From: Oscillospiraceae bacterium
GTDB taxonomy: Bacteria > Bacillota > Clostridia > Oscillospirales > JAKOTC01
DNA length: 64,000 nucleotides
Direction: 5' to 3'
Assembly (NCBI GenBank): GCA_035353335.1
Contig: DAOPZJ010000002.1
Location: 4,703 to 68,702 of the forward strand
This document shows positions 46,080 to 58,373 of this stretch, piece by piece; the first letter of the stretch is position 1, and each line of letters starts with the position of its first letter. Position numbers and translations under genes: made by a program. The notes beneath the pieces are model-generated. The model searched no databases. It was not told the origin of the DNA and worked only from the letters and a program-made list of their open reading frames with translations.

Positions 46080-47468
46080 ATGCGCAAATTCAAGCGCGCC
46101 GCCGCTGTTTTTGCTGTGTTGTTAATCCTCTCGGGAGCTTTTCTATTTCCGGCGTCCGCCGAAGGGGTCTACGCTCCGAACGGGGAACCGCAGGCGGAGT
46201 CGGTATACATCGTCAACGAGGACACCGGTCTCGTGATGTACGATAAGAACGGGGAGGAGCGCCTTTATCCCGCTTCTCTGACCAAAATCATGTCGGCCAT
46301 CGTCATTCTCGAAACTGTCCAAGATCTCGACGGCACTGTCGGAACCATGACAAGCGAGCTGCTCGCGATGATTCAGGGCTCCGGCAGCGTCGTTTTAAAT
46401 TTGGTCGAAGGCGAACAGATCACAATGCGCCAGATGTTATATGCGATGCTTCTCGCGAGCGACGGAGACGCGGCCCTTTTGGCTGCAGCGACGACAAGCG
46501 GAAGCGTTGCGGCATTTGTTGCCGCCATGAACGCAAAAGCCGCTGCGCTCGGCTGCACCAACACCAACTTCACCAATCCGCACGGCCTTCATGACGACAA
46601 TCACTACTCCTGCGCCAAAGACCTCTATCTGATGGCCAAAGAGGCGCTGAAGTATCCGGTATTCAGTGAGATCATCAATTCAACCCGCTATACGATCCCC
46701 GCAACGAACAAAAACGGCCCCCGTACGGTCGTCACCACCAATATGATGCTCAGCTATAACCTCGGCGGAGCGCTGTATTACGAACCCGCGCGCGGCATCA
46801 AGACCGGCTTCACTACGCCTGCCGGCCCCTGCCTTGCCTCAATCGCCGAAAAAGACGGCCAGCGCTATGTCATCATCATGCTGAAATCGACGCTTCCCGG
46901 CGCGGACGGTGCCGTCGATCGCTACGGTGCGTTCAAGACGACCAAAACGCTGTATGACTGGCTATTCTCAACTTATTCGCTTCAGACACTGCTGACCCGG
47001 ACTACGGTTGTCAAGAGCATCCCCGTCAATTACGGAGACAGCGTAGACGAAGTGGGACTGGTTCCGTCGCAGGAATTTGTGACCATGGTTCCGAAAAATA
47101 CCGACTTGAGTTCCATCGTCGTCAAATTCGACGACGCCTTAAAAGACAAAACCGTCGACGCCCCGGTCGAAGCCGGAGCGGTTATCGGCAGCGCGGAGCT
47201 GCTGATCGGGGATAAATCACTCGGCACGGTACAGCTTGTCGCGGCCAACGCGGTCGCGCGCAACGAATTGTCCTATATCCTTGCCCAAATCGGTAAGTTC
47301 TTCTCCTCCGACATCATGATCATCATCGCCTGTATTCTGGCAATTCTGATCATCGGCTATATCGTTTTGAATGTCGTTTATAACCGCAAAAAGAAATCGC
47401 ATTATTCTTCGCACAAACCCGCCAAGCGCTCCCGCTCCCGCTCGCGCAACCGCAACATCTTCCGCTGA
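46080..47468 (+). CDS. D-alanyl-D-alanine carboxypeptidase (S11, PBP5/DacB-like) with C-terminal TM anchor
   Basis: 462 aa. Signal peptide, SxxK (ASLTKIM) and KTG (IKTGFT). The SxN position reads SDG. C-terminal TM segment and basic tail. Confidence 0.85.
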   Translation: MRKFKRAAAVFAVLLILSGAFLFPASAEGVYAPNGEPQAESVYIVNEDTGLVMYDKNGEERLYPASLTKIMSAIVILETVQDLDGTVGTMTSELLAMIQGSGSVVLNLVEGEQITMRQMLYAMLLASDGDAALLAAATTSGSVAAFVAAMNAKAAALGCTNTNFTNPHGLHDDNHYSCAKDLYLMAKEALKYPVFSEIINSTRYTIPATNKNGPRTVVTTNMMLSYNLGGALYYEPARGIKTGFTTPAGPCLASIAEKDGQRYVIIMLKSTLPGADGAVDRYGAFKTTKTLYDWLFSTYSLQTLLTRTTVVKSIPVNYGDSVDEVGLVPSQEFVTMVPKNTDLSSIVVKFDDALKDKTVDAPVEAGAVIGSAELLIGDKSLGTVQLVAANAVARNELSYILAQIGKFFSSDIMIIIACILAILIIGYIVLNVVYNRKKKSHYSSHKPAKRSRSRSRNRNIFR

Positions 47469-52300: not shown

Positions 52301-52850
52301 CCAGCACGGACATATGGCTTCCGTCGGCTACGATATGTACCTCAAACTCCTCGCCGAAGCGGTCGCCGAGGCCAAAGGCGAAAAGCCGCAGGTGCAGAAT
52401 TCGCCCTGCCTTATCGACCTTCCCATCGACGCCTTCATCCCGCCGGCCTACATCAAAGAGCCCGGCCAGCGGCTTGATATCTACCGCAAAATTGCCGCTG
52501 CCGGCAACAAAAACGCCGAGTCCGAAGTTCTTGCCGAATTGCGGGATCGTTTCGGCGAGCCGCCGGTGCAGGTCTCCCGTCTGCTTGAAGTCGCCCGTCT
52601 GCGCAACCGCGCCACGGCCTGCGGAGTCACGGAGCTTTCCAAGCGCGGCGACGGTTTGGTGTTTTATATGAACAACCCAGAGCGCTCCTGCCTGCCCGAG
52701 ATGACCAAGAAGCTGCGTGGCCGCGTGATGATGAACGCAAACGGCGCAAGGCCGCATGTCTATGTCAAACTGCTCAAAGACGACCCTGCGGTTCTGGCCG
52801 CCCGCGTACTCGAATTTTTATCCGGCTCGAAAATTGACTCCGCAATGTAG
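49395..52850 (+). CDS. mfd: Transcription-repair coupling factor
   Basis: 1151 aa. UvrB-homology N-terminus, CarD-like RID, and superfamily-2 helicase motifs (GDVGFGKTEVA, DEEQRFG, TLSATPIPRT). Confidence 0.97.
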   Translation: MKGILQHLSELSGITRIKTSAAKHKACAITGCTPSFRAAVLAATCEELNRPALVVCPSEGEAEKFAADLRQFTDGVFVLPARELILTASGVSSHEYEREALGVLDAARCKKVKAVIGTAEAFTRYTVSPEVLAGRLIELKTGMTIAPNDLVQSLLKAGYVRVDPVEAKGQFCLRGGIADVYPSNSENPLRIEFFGDEIERMAFFDADSQRRTSKADKMHIVPAGEIFPDDPEQFQKDLGHFCTGLHTKNAGDYRSKAESDLTALREGRRINFDRYYNLVHKKPATIFDYLQNPVCAVFDFARTAEAGNGFEKRWLGELSAALEEGFCAKGVDEFYESLDVLFSRVTGSGGLFFDNFAKTALSSRVQDIVTFDCRVNAVWNGSPDTLHEWLSDVSAGNFTPVILVPTKRAAKALIDDLTNSGKPCVLYGLDEPFTGNTAHIAVGALSGGFELPELKFSLLTSTPPRAVKTTVKRANAIGSISELKPGCYVVHQAHGIGLYNGVETITAAGATKDYLKISYSGTDVLYLPVTQLDMLSKYIGPDDNGQVKLNKLGSAEWQRTRSKVKAAVRDMADELIALYSKRKSIQGHAFSSDTPWQEEFEQRFEYDETADQLRCVEEIKADMEQPVPMDRLLCGDVGFGKTEVALRAVFKCVMDGKQAAILAPTTILAWQHYETLCRRMSGFGIEMGLLSRFVTPKQASSTKSKLRTGGIDVVVGTHSILQKDIAFKDLGLIVVDEEQRFGVSQKETLKTKFPVVDVLTLSATPIPRTMNMAISGIRDMSMIDEAPIDRHPVRTFVAEYDLHMLADAIRREQRRGGQVFWLHNRIEDISYVAAKLQTLIPEVRIVCAHGQMDKEELSGIWRRMMDGEIDVLVCTTIIESGIDLPNVNTLIIENADKMGLSQLHQIRGRVGRSSRRAYAYLTYRPEKALSEIAQKRLEAINEFTEFGAGYAIAVRDMEIRGAGDLLGARQHGHMASVGYDMYLKLLAEAVAEAKGEKPQVQNSPCLIDLPIDAFIPPAYIKEPGQRLDIYRKIAAAGNKNAESEVLAELRDRFGEPPVQVSRLLEVARLRNRATACGVTELSKRGDGLVFYMNNPERSCLPEMTKKLRGRVMMNANGARPHVYVKLLKDDPAVLAARVLEFLSGSKIDSAM

Positions 52851-52924
52851 AAGTGGTACAATATACGGCAACGCTCAAAAAGCGTAAGGACAGATAAAAA
52901 TATCCGTCCCTGGGAGGTCGGAAC

Positions 52925-54229
52925 TTGTTTACTTTTGCAATATTGGTCGGCAAAATCGCCGCTTTCTTATTGGGTTTAATCGGACGCGGAAGCGACCTTC
53001 CCGGCAGGGTCGCTTTAAAACTTTGCCCGAAATTGCTCGGCAGATTTAAGCGTAAAGCCAAAATCATCGCGGTTACCGGAAGCAACGGCAAAACCACCAC
53101 CGCCGGCATGATCGCACAGGCGCTTGCTGCCTGCGGCAAGACCGTCAAGACCAACCCGATCGGCTCGAATATGACCGGCGGCGTCGCGACTGTCATGCTC
53201 AAAGCGTCTGACTTACGCGGCCATATCAACTGCGATTTTTTGGTGCTTGAAACCGATGAGCGCTGGTCGCGGTTGATTTTTGCCGACTTCAAACCCGATT
53301 ACATGCTGGTCACAAACCTGTTTCGCGACCAAATCACCCGCAATAACAACGTCGACTTTATTTTTAACATATTAAATGATGTCATCACCCCCGAGATGAC
53401 CCTGATTTTGAACGCCATGGACCCGATCAGCGTCCGACTCGGCAAAGATTGCCGCAAGGTCTATTTCGGCTGCGACGAGGGCGAACTCACACACCCGAAA
53501 CCCATTTCGATCACCCACGACTGCAAGGTCTGCCCGATCTGCAAACATCGGCTCTCCTACAAATTTTACCTCAACAACCATATCGGAAAATACCGGTGCG
53601 ATAATTGCGAATTCACCGCACCGTGTCCGAGTTATTTGTTGACCGATGCCGACCTCGGCAGAGGCACCGCCAAAATCAACGGTCTGGATATCAAACTCGA
53701 AGCCCCGACCGCTTACGGATTTATGAACCTGGCCGCCGCAGCCGCCGTCTGCACCGAAGCCGGTCTGCCGTTTTGGTCGGTCGTTGCGGCGCTCAATCAA
53801 ATTAAGACCAATAAAACCCGAATCGACCGTTTTAAAATCGGTGAACGCGAAGGCGTTATGATCTTGTCAAAGAATCAAAACCCCGTCTCGTTCGATTTAT
53901 CGATTTCCGAAGTGCTTCGCATCCCGGGCGAAAAGACCGTCGTCGCCTACATCAACAACATCAACCATACCAATCACCGCGACACCACCTGGCTGTGGGA
54001 CATCGCGGTTGAACGTCTTGCGGGCAATGTCAGAAACGTGATCTGCGCAGGCCCGAGGGCGTATGACCTCGCGGTTCGGCTCAAATATGCGGGCTTTGAC
54101 ATGGACACTGTGCTGATCGAACCGGACAACTCCGGCATCAAAGCAGCCGTGTCCAAAACTAAAGGGACGCTCTGCATTTTGACCGAACTGTACGACGCAA
54201 AAACCATTATGGAGGCGACCGGAAGATGA
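52925..54229 (+). CDS. murT: MurT-like Mur ligase family protein (lipid II isoglutaminyl synthase ligase subunit homologue)
   Basis: 434 aa with TTG start 7 nt after GGGAGG. P-loop VTGSNGKTTT, TNLFRDQ, a four-Cys ribbon (CKVCPIC...CDNC) and C-terminal DUF1727-like DTTWLWD. Several signature motifs are divergent (see findings). Confidence 0.8.
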   Translation: MFTFAILVGKIAAFLLGLIGRGSDLPGRVALKLCPKLLGRFKRKAKIIAVTGSNGKTTTAGMIAQALAACGKTVKTNPIGSNMTGGVATVMLKASDLRGHINCDFLVLETDERWSRLIFADFKPDYMLVTNLFRDQITRNNNVDFIFNILNDVITPEMTLILNAMDPISVRLGKDCRKVYFGCDEGELTHPKPISITHDCKVCPICKHRLSYKFYLNNHIGKYRCDNCEFTAPCPSYLLTDADLGRGTAKINGLDIKLEAPTAYGFMNLAAAAAVCTEAGLPFWSVVAALNQIKTNKTRIDRFKIGEREGVMILSKNQNPVSFDLSISEVLRIPGEKTVVAYINNINHTNHRDTTWLWDIAVERLAGNVRNVICAGPRAYDLAVRLKYAGFDMDTVLIEPDNSGIKAAVSKTKGTLCILTELYDAKTIMEATGR

Positions 54230-54921
54230 AACTGCTTCGGCTTTACGACGACCTGCTCGACCTCTACGGCGACGGCGGCAACTTCACTGTGATTAAAAAA
54301 CGGCTTGAAGCAGCCGGATATGAGCTGACTGCGGAATGCCGCACGGTCGGTGAACCTTTCGACCTGACGCAATACGACTTTGTCTACATCTCCCCCGGTC
54401 TGCCAAAAAACCTCGCCGTCGCCGCTGCCGATCTGGTGCCGCGCAGCGAAAACCTGTTTGACGCCATCGAAAAAGGCGTGGTGTTTTTAGCGACCGGCAA
54501 CGCCCCCGCGTTGTTTTCCGAAGAATTTATATTGGACGACGGCGAAAAAGTCAAGGGCTGCGGCCTGTTCCCGGTCAAGCATGCCTTCGGCAAAAAGATC
54601 ACAATCCGTGACCTGGTAGGCATCACTGAAAGCGGACTCCAAATCACGGGCTTTTTAAACAGTACCGACACCCGCCATGGCGAATATGAAACCCCGTTCG
54701 TCCGTATCACAGGCAGCGGGAAGCAACCGTATGATAAAACCACGGACGGCGCGCGCAAAAAGAACCTTTTCGCCACCGAGCTGCTCGGCCCGGTGCTCGT
54801 TCGCAACCCCGACCTTCTGCGCGAACTGTTGAATCTGATCGCAGGTGAGCCGCTCCCGCCCTACGACGATTCCCTCGAAACCGAAGCCGCAAAGCGCATT
54901 TTAAAAGAGCTTATGGCTTAA
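54226..54921 (+). CDS. gatD: GatD-like protein lacking the canonical glutaminase Cys/His (pseudo-amidotransferase?)
   Basis: 231 aa with a 4-nt overlap with murT. N-terminal LYDDLLDLYGDGGN matches the GatD hallmark. The expected (A/T)ICGG nucleophile site reads LATGN, and the expected HGP(I/V)L site reads LLGPVL. Confidence 0.65.
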   Translation: MKLLRLYDDLLDLYGDGGNFTVIKKRLEAAGYELTAECRTVGEPFDLTQYDFVYISPGLPKNLAVAAADLVPRSENLFDAIEKGVVFLATGNAPALFSEEFILDDGEKVKGCGLFPVKHAFGKKITIRDLVGITESGLQITGFLNSTDTRHGEYETPFVRITGSGKQPYDKTTDGARKKNLFATELLGPVLVRNPDLLRELLNLIAGEPLPPYDDSLETEAAKRILKELMA

Positions 54922-55069
54922 ATAACGAAGGGGGAGATGCCCACATCCCGCCGCATATGAAGACAATATTGTAATTCGTTTATATAATTTAATTCTTCTA
55001 TGGAATTAAATTTGACGCACGGCGGAATAATGAGGGCGTTCTCTCAGGACGTCCCGCCCCATAATAAAC

Positions 55070-55096
55070 AAAAGGCCCCTTTTCGGAGCCTTTTTT
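55070..55096. terminator. Bidirectional terminator
   Basis: AAAAGGCCCC-TTTTC-GGAGCCTTTTTT (one mismatch) between convergent gatD-like and ABC permease genes. Confidence 0.65.
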
Positions 55097-55106
55097 ATAT
55101 GCGCAA

Positions 55107-55961
55107 CTATCTTTTCTTTCTTGAGATATTCCAAAGTGCCAAACCGTAAAACAAGACAGCGCTTCCGATTAAAATCAGAATGCTTGTCGTCACCGAAACC
55201 GCAGCGTCGCCGAACTTGAATGTCACGCCCATCATCTGTTTAAATCCTTCGATCGTCTCCGCAGGCGCACCGTCAAATGTGGCAGCCAACGGCGCTTCCA
55301 TCATCGCCTGCCGGAATAACGCGGCCGCATGCGAAGGTGGGAAGCATTTGATCACCCACTGAACGCCTTCTGGCAACTGTCCGATCGGCAGATAAATGCC
55401 TGTCAAAAAGCCGATCATGGTTCCGATCACGGTGCTTGCGGTGCCGAAAGCGTTATTGCTCTTAAAAAACGAGACGAGCAGCAGCACCATTGACGCATTG
55501 GTCGTCGTGGAAAGCACCACCAGCCCGAGCACTTTAAAAAGCGCCGTAAACCCCATGAATTCGCCGCCGCTCAGGATGATGTATACCTCAGCCAGCACTA
55601 CGGTGACCAGGCTCATGATGATGCCGATGACGATGGAACTGAAAATATATCCGCCGACAATCTTGCTGCTTTTAATCGGCGAGACTGTGAAATCTTTGAT
55701 AATTTTTTTCGATTTATCATCAACCATTGTGCCGAACGCGCCCATCGTCGTTGTGACCGAGGTAACCGCGAGCAGGCCTGCCATGATCCAGGAATTCATT
55801 AAAAATTCCGCACCCGGGGCGTTATCCATACTTTTGACCCAGACGTCGCCCAAAAACAGCGCATACAGCCCGATGATGATGAACACGGCGAGCAGAGAAA
55901 AAAACACCGAAGCCCTGTCTTTGAAAAACACTTTAAGATTTCTGACGGTAAATCCGCTCAT
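55107..55961 (-). CDS. ABC-2 type transporter permease
   Basis: 284 aa with six TM segments. Overlaps the upstream ATPase gene by 4 nt. Confidence 0.85.
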   Translation of the reverse strand: MSGFTVRNLKVFFKDRASVFFSLLAVFIIIGLYALFLGDVWVKSMDNAPGAEFLMNSWIMAGLLAVTSVTTTMGAFGTMVDDKSKKIIKDFTVSPIKSSKIVGGYIFSSIVIGIIMSLVTVVLAEVYIILSGGEFMGFTALFKVLGLVVLSTTTNASMVLLLVSFFKSNNAFGTASTVIGTMIGFLTGIYLPIGQLPEGVQWVIKCFPPSHAAALFRQAMMEAPLAATFDGAPAETIEGFKQMMGVTFKFGDAAVSVTTSILILIGSAVLFYGLALWNISRKKR

Positions 55962-57036: not shown

Positions 57037-57086
57037 GCAACCGGCGGTTGCACTTTCTAATTCTAAACTCTTAATACTGAATTTTA
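57037..57086. repeat. GC hairpin plus heptamer tract (same family as 11301-11373)
   Basis: GCAACC-GGC-GGTTGC (57037-57051), then TTCTAAT TCTAAAC TCTTAAT ACTGAAT TTTAAT. An opposed arm TTTGAATTCCTAATTATGAA lies at 56941-56960. Confidence 0.35.
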
Positions 57087-58169
57087 ATATGTTCCGAGTT
57101 CAATTCCCTTTTTTATAAAATATTTATAGTTCTCCATATCGACGGTTTTCGGTACCGAATGGTCGGTGTGCAGCACATAGCCGTATTTGCCCTTGACAAT
57201 CGGGATTTTCTTTTCAAGTTCCGCGTCAATCTGGGCGCGGTCGTTAGAGCAGAGTGCCCGGGCGTCGATGCCGCCCATCAATGCGATCTTGTCGCCGTAG
57301 TTTTGATAAATGCGCAGTAAATCCATACCGGCTTTGACTTCCATCGCCTGCAATAAATTCATCCCCGCTTTAATCATACCCGGAATCAGCGGTTCGACAA
57401 ATCCGCAGGAATGCACCATCACCGGCAGTCCGATGGAGTGCGCATAGTCAAACGTATACACATGAGACGGATAAATGAATTGATCGTACATCGCCGGAGA
57501 CATAAACGGCGCACCCTTGTAGCCCATATCTTCGTAATACCAGATGCCGTCGGGTTTTCCCTCGCGTTCAAAAAGCATTTTTTGCAGTTCCACCGTCAGC
57601 CACGCAAAGGTCTTGCTCATATCCATAATCCATTCGGGGTCGTAGATCATCGCGGCAAGCATCTCTTCGTGCCCCGCGACCGGGTGCATGCACTCAAAGA
57701 CGTTGACGCCCGACCATACCAAAAACTTATTGTGTTCCGCGGCATATTGCTTATCCTTATGGTAGGCTTCAAAGTTAATGCGCTTTTCAAACAGCGACCG
57801 GTCAAGCAGAAGCGGTTTAATCTTTTCCTCCCATTTTTCCCGGCTGTCGATTTCGTAGCGCACATGCTCCGGGGTGGAGTCGTGTTTTTTATGGCGGCGC
57901 AGCACGGCCCAGTTGCCGTCGAGCTTGGTTACGGTATCCTCGTCTTCTTTTACAACGACCGGTTCAAAATCGACACGGGCGACCATTTTAAACGGCCAGC
58001 ATTCCAACAAATCGAAGTTGAATTCCTTGTTCATATCAGACCCGCAGCCCTGATTTTCCATCCATTCTTTTTGAGTGTCGCCCCAAAAATGCTCAAAAAG
58101 CCCGATCCGATCCACCGGCTGGTGATTTAAAATACGTGAAATGCGTTCTTTCCCTGTCAGTTCCGTCAT
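57084..58169 (-). CDS. Uroporphyrinogen decarboxylase (URO-D) family protein, MtaA/CmuA-like
   Basis: Start at ATG 58169 (MTELTGKERI), 7 nt after AAAGGATGG. URO-D-like N-terminus (PVDRIGLF) and C-terminal HSCG. Function uncertain. Confidence 0.75.
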   Translation of the reverse strand: MTELTGKERISRILNHQPVDRIGLFEHFWGDTQKEWMENQGCGSDMNKEFNFDLLECWPFKMVARVDFEPVVVKEDEDTVTKLDGNWAVLRRHKKHDSTPEHVRYEIDSREKWEEKIKPLLLDRSLFEKRINFEAYHKDKQYAAEHNKFLVWSGVNVFECMHPVAGHEEMLAAMIYDPEWIMDMSKTFAWLTVELQKMLFEREGKPDGIWYYEDMGYKGAPFMSPAMYDQFIYPSHVYTFDYAHSIGLPVMVHSCGFVEPLIPGMIKAGMNLLQAMEVKAGMDLLRIYQNYGDKIALMGGIDARALCSNDRAQIDAELEKKIPIVKGKYGYVLHTDHSVPKTVDMENYKYFIKKGIELGTY

Positions 58170-58373
58170 TACAATTCCATCCTTTCGCAAAGGCGATAAA
58201 TGTTATTAGATTTCGGTCGCAAATATTTTTAAACCCGATCTTTTACATGATACCATCTGTATATACCTCTGTCAAATGTATTATGGTAAAAAATAAAAGC
58301 GTTTTGCACAAGCAGAGCGCTTTACCTTAACATTGCTTTTTCCTGTTTATTAAAATCTTCTCGCCGCAGCGGT

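Follow-up and report, generated by a model that had tools for sequence, protein, structure and literature searches.

The 64,000-nucleotide stretch of DNA analysed here (the window) comes from an Oscillospiraceae bacterium (contig DAOPZJ010000002.1, positions 4,703 to 68,702) and carries, on its forward strand, two adjoining genes whose products resemble MurT and GatD, the two subunits of the enzyme that amidates lipid II. The GatD-like protein has lost the Cys-His dyad of the glutaminase. A MurT/GatD-type pair with this dyad missing was the original prediction, made from the sequence of the window, and profiles, folds and alignments all confirm it. The loss is shared by a large clade of related pairs, and we favour, with a probability of roughly 0.55, a model in which the complex would amidate the D-Glu residue of lipid II with free ammonia. 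The two genes are:

52925..54229, + strand: MurT-like ligase gene, an open reading frame with a TTG start, encoding 434 residues.
54226..54921, + strand: GatD-like gene, an open reading frame with an ATG start, encoding 231 residues; class-I glutamine amidotransferase (GATase) fold of the CobB/CobQ type.

Both reading frames and their 4-nt overlap stand as first described, and gene calls of the Joint Genome Institute (JGI) agree with them: the identical two genes and proteins are found on three independent anaerobic-digester metagenome contigs, where the MurT-like protein (P0044) is 100% identical to that of the window. Sequencing or assembly mistakes as the source of the substitutions, a concern raised with the original prediction, are dismissed by this threefold recovery of the same genes. 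Inspection of the junction shows the TGA stop of the MurT-like gene and the ATG of the GatD-like gene sharing the four nucleotides ATGA, with a GGAGG 10 nt upstream of the second start (GGAGG-N10-ATGA), an arrangement which indicates that the GatD-like gene is translationally coupled to its neighbour.

Both proteins are clear homologues of MurT and GatD, yet neither is an ordinary member of the characterised family, since both fall far below the NCBIfam equivalog cut-offs: the MurT-like protein scores 191.9 and 177.7 bits against a cut-off of 800 (NF045635 / NF052464), and the GatD-like protein 64.5 and 65.8 bits against cut-offs of 400 (NF045636) and 450 (NF052463). In Pfam the former matches MurT_C (4e-20) and Mur_ligase_M (5e-11), and the latter GATase_3 (PF07685; 4.7e-9). 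The best sequence matches in the PDB are MurT chains for the first protein (6FQB_A, 2.9e-44; 6GS2_B, 3e-43) and GatD chains for the second (9SQ9_C, 2.6e-15, followed by 6FQB_E and 5N9M_A), and HHalign relates the clade profile of the GatD-like proteins to GatD with a probability of 99.9%. AlphaFold2 models have mean predicted local distance difference test (pLDDT) values of 94.8 for the GatD-like and 87.8 for the MurT-like protein. GatD chains take the first nine places among the fold matches of the GatD-like model, with template-modelling (TM) scores of 0.84-0.87, the next being HisH and PdxT at ~0.6, and the model includes the extra C-terminal helix of GatD (residues 216-230). For the MurT-like model the 13 best matches are all MurT chains (TM up to 0.76-0.82); its architecture comprises the Mur-ligase central domain, the four-Cys ribbon and MurT_C (DUF1727), with no N-terminal domain binding uridine diphosphate (UDP).

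The catalytic columns of the GatD-like protein were located by HMMER against PDB sequences, by MAFFT alignment with GatD of Staphylococcus aureus and Streptococcus pneumoniae, and by HHalign of the clade profile. All three aligners lay LATGNAP over (T/A)ICGG(Y/F)Q, and ELLGPVL over Y(L/F)HGPIL, without a gap. The stretches concerned are:

54241..54282, + strand: LYDDLLDLYGDGGN (residues 6-19), containing Y14, G18 and N19, of which N19 is invariant.
54385..54405, + strand: YISPGLP, the former oxyanion strand (canonical F(F/I)GGG), with Pro57 as the equivalent of Gly60.
54487..54507, + strand: LATGNAP, the former nucleophile elbow (canonical (A/T)ICGG(F/Y)Q), with no Cys.
54649..54663, + strand: GFLNS (canonical GFENH), the Glu and the His both gone and Asn145 invariant.
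54778..54810, + strand: ELLGPVLVRNP (canonical Y(L/F)HGPIL..N), with G188, P189, L191, N194 and P195 invariant.

These motifs (the last quoted as ELLGPVL) had all been named at the outset, and all are present. The HMMER and HHalign profile alignments place neither a Cys nor a His at the columns of Cys94 and His189 (S. aureus numbering). The proposed change of His to Leu holds, Leu187 occupying the His189 column in every alignment method. The proposed change of Cys to Thr holds only as far as the Cys is concerned: HMMER, MAFFT and HHalign agree in putting Gly91 in the Cys94 column and Thr90 in that of Ile93, so that a shift of one residue is needed to bring the Thr into register. Such a shift is suggested by the structural model, in which A89 closes strand beta4 and the turn opens with T90, at the usual position of the nucleophile, and by rare CGG variants; the three sequence methods point to Gly91. 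Neither register supplies a thiol, there being no Cys at or adjoining the column. Two partner proteins of the clade, from Neobittarella massiliensis (L033:5305-6078) and from a second genome (L037:1793-2452), have a Cys at the Thr90 spot (LFCGGAV and LFCGSAI, respectively) and no His; this Cys could be an ancestral remnant or a reversion.

The rest of the glutaminase pocket has also changed. In the window protein the oxyanion glycines are gone, Gly60 being replaced by Pro57 and Gly95/Gly96 by Asn92/Ala, and the glutamine-capturing Arg128 has become Ile126, an Arg being kept in ~60% of other clade members. The oxyanion role of Gly60 has been described for S. aureus GatD (PMC5871853), and in the same protein each of the mutations C94S, C94G, C94A, H189A and R128A abolishes glutamine-dependent activity (PMC6113224; PMC5871853; PMC3266927). 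Because the catalytic residues are gone, and because the S. aureus mutants at C94, H189 and R128 are dead, it is almost certain that the GatD-like protein cannot hydrolyse glutamine by the class-I mechanism. Residues that the family conserves without exception, or nearly so, are L13, Y14, G15, G18, N19, Y54, G58, G91, N92, G142, N145, G188, P189, L191, N194 and P195.

These losses are not peculiar to the window. A word-indexed search returned 43 GatD-like relatives of 29-98% identity, none of them with the dyad, and when 1.84 billion cluster representatives were searched exhaustively with a profile, 583 proteins (50%-identity clusters) scored E <= 1e-30. Columns were counted in 187 sequences, made up of the 150 best profile matches and the earlier relatives. 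The Cys column is Gly in 187/187, Thr90 is present in ~88% and Asn92 in 84%; the His column holds L, I, M, T, S or V, and His in 0/187. One genome per GTDB species was scanned for the MurT-like clade motifs; at least 208 species genomes carry the signature, and the loci analysed are the best 80 of these 208. Among their genome-encoded partners, His is found at the catalytic column in 0/78 and a Cys is absent from 76/78. Conservation of the substitutions in relatives, a check proposed with the original prediction, is borne out, the losses being found in 187/187 and 78/78.

The 80 best genomes belong to the Oscillospirales and the Erysipelotrichaceae, the latter including Solobacterium, and most carriers overall are Oscillospirales, among them Zongyangia hominis, Ligaoa zhengdingensis, Pseudoflavonifractor capillosus and Neobittarella massiliensis, together with Hydrogenoanaerobacterium, Angelakisella, Negativibacillus, Faecousia and Saccharofermentans. 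Nearly all source samples are gut, rumen, caecum or digester. Two loci bear names from outside these groups, a 'Marvinbryantia formatexigens' metagenome-assembled genome (MAG; L014) and 'Atopobium sp. UBA2090' (L068), reflecting either mislabelled bins or horizontal transfer. Compared with L005, the closest genome relative, the MurT-like gene has a ratio of nonsynonymous to synonymous substitution rates (dN/dS) of 0.08 (0.068/0.882) and the GatD-like gene one of 0.14 (0.096/0.698), so that both are under purifying selection.

The MurT-like subunit, in turn, combines the residues of a working ligase with motifs of its own:

53075..53101, + strand: P-loop TGSNGKTTT (residues 51-59), binding adenosine triphosphate (ATP), clade-invariant.
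53162..53263, + strand: acceptor and Mg2+ residues, GSN (N82) and LETDER (E109, D111/E112), all clade-invariant.
53315..53350, + strand: interface and ammonia-channel loop NLFRDQITRNNN (residues 131-142), with the signature RDQ[LIV][TV]RN for the canonical RDQMDRFGE.
53531..53608, + strand: four-Cys zinc ribbon (C203, C206, C225, C228), with CPxC in 120/120 clade members.
53867..53896, + strand: SKNQNPVSFD (residues 315-324), the canonical K-N-P loop with a two-residue insertion.
53954..54001, + strand: NNINHTNHRDTTWLWD (residues 344-359), with NNINH for DNAAD and with D353, W356, W358 and D359.

The motifs first quoted for this protein (GSNGKT, four Cys, RDTTWLWD, RDQITRNNN and KNQNP) are likewise all in place. 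Invariant or nearly so in the clade are GSNGKT, N82, E109, D111/E112, the hinge R299, the four-Cys ribbon and an N-terminal LPG motif, as well as R134, D353, W356, W/Y358 and D359. The P-loop of canonical MurT reads GTNGKT (PMC6113224). N82 is the equivalent of S. pneumoniae Asn85, E109 of S. aureus E108, and D111/E112 of S. pneumoniae D112/E113, residues to which acceptor-carboxylate binding (N85) and Mg2+ binding have been assigned (PMC6085368, PMC6113224). The ligase therefore looks active as far as its residues allow a judgement.

The RDQMDRFGE loop lies at the GatD interface and probably forms a wall of the ammonia channel (Morlot et al., PMC6085368). In the window protein the NLFRDQITRNNN loop keeps R134, D135 and R139, R134 being the equivalent of S. 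pneumoniae R135; the Asp139 equivalent has become Thr and the Glu143 equivalent Asn. Mutation of Asp136 or Arg140 lowers the activity of S. pneumoniae MurT and mutation of Asp139 or Glu143 has minor effect (PMC6085368); the clade loop keeps the former positions and replaces the latter. SKNQNPVSFD stands where canonical MurT has KNP(A/V)G, and its K316, Q318, N319, S322 and D324 are clade-invariant. NNINH replaces the DNAAD proposed to touch residue 3 of the stem peptide (PMC6113224). Beyond it, D353 corresponds to S. aureus D349 and S. pneumoniae D355, W358 to S. pneumoniae W360, which is essential for GatD binding, and D359 to S. pneumoniae D361, the 'negative gate' facing GatD (PMC6085368). 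The original prediction had called this MurT divergent. Its motifs do diverge, yet they are no idiosyncrasy of the window: RDQxTRN, with RDQ(L/I)TRN(G/N)N as its fuller form, occurs in 117/120 MurT-like homologues and KNQNP in 107/120, whereas the canonical RDQ(M/L)DR(F/Y)GE occurs in 0/120, which makes them a clade signature.

Several lines of evidence tie the two proteins together. A GatD-like gene directly follows the MurT-like gene in 78/80 loci with an intact MurT-like reading frame, mostly with a 4-nt overlap. Of the two loci without an adjacent partner, one stops at a contig edge and the other is L041, a 4.6-kb Oscillospiraceae MAG contig. There, the MurT-like gene (L041:883-2214) has no GatD-like follower though the contig continues; tblastn found no GatD-like remnant on it, and a 359-residue reading frame comes after a gap of ~390 nt. 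A search for conserved neighbours in the 80 loci found none, the largest flanking cluster besides the pair being present in 15/80, so that selection acts on the pair as a unit. That the two proteins associate physically is supported independently by a natural fusion protein of 793 residues (P0276), in which a MurT-like part (GSNGKT, RDQLTRN, CPVC) is joined by a low-complexity linker of ~100 residues to a GatD-like domain, itself without the Cys or the His (LATGNA, TYMTGP). The representative search also gave P0254 (435 residues), an apparent fragment of another such fusion.

The interface residues of the solved complexes are retained on both sides, namely Y14, G18, G188, P189, N194 and P195 of the GatD-like protein and R134, D353, W/Y358 and D359 of the MurT-like protein. 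Y14 corresponds to Tyr30, the 'plug' residue of S. pneumoniae GatD, and G18 to Gly34, which alone among the conserved GatD residues touches MurT directly, at the MurT Trp (PMC6085368). In S. aureus a proline-framed stretch after His189 contacts MurT (PMC6113224), and the GP...NP of the GatD-like protein (G188, P189, N194, P195) is its counterpart. We infer that the MurT-like and GatD-like proteins form a complex.

What would such a complex do without a glutaminase? In the model that we favour, the two genes would encode an obligate heterodimer of the MurT/GatD type. Its MurT-like subunit would use ATP to activate the alpha-carboxyl of D-Glu in the lipid-linked precursor, lipid II, as an acyl-phosphate, and its GatD-like subunit, hydrolysing no glutamine, would act as the structural and allosteric partner that MurT requires. 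The amide nitrogen would come from free cytoplasmic ammonia, which would attack the acyl-phosphate after entering, probably, through the acidic opening, conserved in MurT, on the side toward the GatD-like subunit. We infer lipid II to be the substrate and ammonia the nucleophile. An inert scaffold and an ammonia-dependent or otherwise re-purposed ligase had first been offered as separate options; both survive, not as alternatives but as the two halves of one model.

The closest precedent is a mutant. S. aureus MurT alone is inactive with any nitrogen donor, and S. aureus MurT with GatD_C94G loses its activity with glutamine and keeps a lipid II amidation dependent on NH3/NH4Cl at pH 8.5 (Munch et al. 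2012, PMC3266927). The clade resembles this mutant in having a GatD that lacks the nucleophile beside an intact MurT, with Gly at the same column in the register of the sequence alignments. The GatD-like subunit would thus be retained because MurT is non-functional without it. The mutant differs in being a single change in an otherwise live site, whereas in the clade remodelling extends to the whole pocket and to several MurT loops, and the clade is maintained by selection across a wide phylogenetic range. Loss of the glutaminase is plausible because the habitats of the carriers are ammonia-rich. Across the clade, moreover, the identity between GatD-like proteins is 0.69-0.85 of that between their MurT-like partners, whereas in the single canonical species pair compared, S. 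aureus and S. pneumoniae, identity is higher for GatD (41%) than for MurT (37%), a ratio of 1.10. Faster drift of the GatD-like protein is expected if the catalytic constraint is gone and the fold and interface are still needed.

Other systems provide partial parallels. The canonical MurT/GatD enzymes (EC 6.3.5.13) of S. aureus, S. pneumoniae, Streptococcus pyogenes and Mycobacterium tuberculosis (6GS2, 6H5E, 6FQB, 9SQ9) share with the present pair the two-gene operon and its translational coupling, both folds, a MurT architecture without the UDP-binding domain, the ATP, Mg2+ and acceptor residues, and, in both subunits, the interface residues, among them the MurT Asp which in S. aureus is the third member of the triad. 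They differ in the GatD residues that the clade lacks (Cys94, His189 and Gly60/Gly95/Gly96, with Arg128 also missing from the window protein) and in the MurT loops, where the clade has RDQxTRN for RDQMDRFGE, KNQNP for KNP and NNINH for DNAAD. In ureotelic vertebrates, carbamoyl-phosphate synthetase I works with free ammonia and retains, for structural and allosteric reasons, a Cys-less class-I glutaminase-like domain; its synthetase fold and pathway are unrelated, however, its dead domain is fused, and it is eukaryotic. Archaeal 'MurT-like' proteins of the Methanopyrales and Methanobacteriales, whose genomes contain no GatD homologue (Lupo et al. 2025, PMC11915815), are likewise a divergent MurT branch freed from the glutaminase. 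They contrast with the present clade in lacking GatD and in being archaeal, whereas the clade consists of bacteria, of the Bacillota, with a GatD homologue adjacent.

Several points weigh against ammonia-dependent amidation. A literature search for the peptidoglycan chemotype of cultured carriers found none. The ammonia-dependent activity of the S. aureus enzyme is seen at pH 8.5 only and is absent at pH 7.5 (PMC3266927), implying that an efficient ammonia-dependent enzyme would need further adaptations. The channel loop of the clade is short of two acidic residues, contrary to what would be expected for the capture of NH4+, and the comparison of evolutionary rates has one canonical species pair only. 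If a canonical murT-gatD were present in the same genomes, the pair would more likely be a paralogue with a new function; that bacteria mostly carry one murT copy (Lupo et al. 2025, PMC11915815) speaks, indirectly, against such a second copy. Finally, the near-invariant polar KNQNPVSFD and NNINH motifs exceed what the loss of the glutaminase alone demands, and they could mark a different nucleophile or a different stem peptide.

A different nucleophile is the substance of the strongest rival, a serious though unlikely one, according to which the enzyme is a re-purposed ligase that couples the stem-peptide acyl-phosphate to an amino acid, a diamine or an amino-acid amide rather than to ammonia; the donor would be bound by the remodelled GatD-like pocket and the new motifs of the C-terminal domain, or the GatD-like subunit would be a mere scaffold. 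The polar residues in question (K316, Q318, N319, S322, D324, N345 and NNINH) are near-invariant, and the loops that contain them are turned, in canonical MurT, toward the cleft that separates the ATP site from GatD; the former GatD site, with invariant residues of its own (G91 and N145, and N92 in 84%), has not drifted freely. The D-Glu alpha-carboxyl, besides, can bear substituents other than NH2. Reportedly (Schleifer & Kandler 1972; Vollmer et al. 2008) these include Gly, glycine amide, D-Ala amide and cadaverine, as well as the group-B cross-bridges, and to our knowledge no ligase has been assigned to most of them. Group-B walls are known in the Erysipelotrichaceae, which are among the carriers; most carriers, however, are Oscillospirales, for which we know of no group-B walls. 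The literature search, moreover, gave no chemotype data, the opening toward GatD is still defined by the same residues, and the C94G precedent already accounts for the keeping of a dead subunit. We therefore consider it doubtful, and in its specific form more so, that the complex is not an amidase but the missing ligase that places an amino acid, amino-acid amide or diamine on the D-Glu alpha-carboxyl of lipid II. In that form the product might be the first residue of a group-B cross-bridge, Gly or D-Ala-amide, with the former glutaminase pocket and KNQNPVSFD/NNINH as the donor site.

It is very unlikely that the GatD-like subunit has kept an ability to free ammonia from glutamine or some other amide by non-canonical chemistry, with Thr90 as the nucleophile and the Tyr14/Asp16 loop assisting it, as in Thr-dependent amidohydrolases. 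Thr90 is present in most members and is the first residue after strand beta4 in the model, the loop equivalent to Tyr17/Asp19 is conserved, and the Arg128 equivalent survives in much of the clade (~60%). In some members, however, Thr90 is replaced by Ile, Asn or Ser, and the window protein has Ile at the Arg128 position. Both oxyanion glycines are gone, no general base takes the place of the His, and three sequence methods put Gly, not Thr, at the nucleophile column; in S. aureus GatD even the conservative change C94S is enough to kill the enzyme (PMC6113224).

A regulatory, non-catalytic complex that sequesters lipid II or senses nitrogen, for example by binding glutamine without hydrolysing it, is highly improbable. 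Pseudoenzymes often turn into regulators, and the Arg128 equivalent is kept in part of the clade; but the P-loop, the Mg2+ ligands, the acceptor Asn and the hinge Arg of the ligase are all invariant, which a non-catalytic complex would hardly explain. Decay of a redundant copy, one of the options originally put forward, is rejected together with sequencing or assembly artefact as having practically no chance, since both reading frames are intact on contigs from three metagenomes, the losses are fixed in 187 representatives and 78/78 genome partners, dN/dS is low (0.14 and 0.08) and the fold is confidently predicted.

The surroundings of the pair in the window contain the following elements:

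52834..52862, + strand: promoter-like site TTGACT-17-TACAAT (10/12 match, TG before the -10 element).
52886-52911, + strand: 26-nt leader hairpin, between the promoter-like site and the MurT-like Shine-Dalgarno sequence.
52913-52917, + strand: Shine-Dalgarno sequence GGAGG, 7 nt before the TTG start of the MurT-like gene.
55070..55094, unstranded: GC-rich hairpin with A and T runs on its two sides, separating the GatD-like gene from the convergent ABC-transporter genes.

The promoter-like site, which overlaps the end of mfd, was called from its consensus match alone (4 sites found, 1.8 expected in shuffles), and could give the pair a transcript of its own. The downstream hairpin was scored on the - strand; it is palindromic, with A/T tracts on both sides, and is likely to be a bidirectional terminator closing the transcript of the pair. 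No Rfam family or riboswitch was matched in 52700-55200, the leader hairpin included. A search for a second copy of the pair with both clade profiles (hmmsearch, all window reading frames of >=80 residues, E <= 10) returned the pair itself only. On the JGI digester contigs the gene order is prs-pth-mfd-pair, followed by the convergent ABC-transporter genes; the upstream neighbour is mfd in the window and metG-tatD in Zongyangia. Farther upstream of prs-pth-mfd, ~5 kb ahead of the pair (46080-47468, + strand), lies a gene for a D-Ala-D-Ala carboxypeptidase of the PBP5 type (Peptidase_S11 with PBP5_C, by JGI annotation of the identical contig), with no such linkage seen in other genomes. Downstream of the ABC-transporter genes (57084-58190, - strand) a protein of the URO-D family (PF01208), unrelated to the pair, is encoded; URO-D family proteins of anaerobes are often methyltransferases rather than haem enzymes.

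Full-text literature searches found no description of a GatD clade lacking Cys and His, nor of a MurT that depends on ammonia in nature. A MurT tree is given in the Bulleidia genome paper, which does not mention GatD, and the Mur-ligase phylogeny paper describes only the archaeal 'MurT-like' proteins without GatD (PMC11915815). Database names are uneven: the NCBI pipeline calls clade proteins 'MurT ligase domain-containing protein' and 'hypothetical protein', the latter being its name for the partner of the MurT-like protein in Z. hominis, whereas UniRef labels the MurT-like protein itself (P0057 / L004:10001-11308) 'Lipid II isoglutaminyl synthase (glutamine-hydrolyzing) subunit MurT'. The '(glutamine-hydrolyzing)' part is probably wrong, an over-annotation, because the partner cannot hydrolyse glutamine.

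We conclude that this is the MurT/GatD machine, stripped of one of its two chemistries and with its remaining subunit reshaped, and that the clade carrying it is both large and ecologically coherent. MurT/GatD, which is essential to staphylococci, streptococci and mycobacteria and is a drug target in them, is regarded as strictly glutamine-dependent in vivo. The existence of a large natural clade that has dispensed with the glutaminase chemistry, yet keeps the subunit, implies that GatD has a second, non-catalytic role preserved by selection, and makes the pair a natural system in which to study the route of ammonia to the MurT active site. Were the complex a re-purposed ligase, a gene would have been assigned to an orphan peptidoglycan modification. 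If ammonia-dependent amidation is correct, many Firmicutes of gut and rumen would tie the amidation of D-Glu to ambient ammonia instead of to the glutamine pool. Amidation to iso-Gln governs cross-linking, sensitivity to lysozyme and antimicrobial peptides, and recognition by NOD1 and NOD2, and the wall chemistry of these commensals could then vary with ammonia levels.

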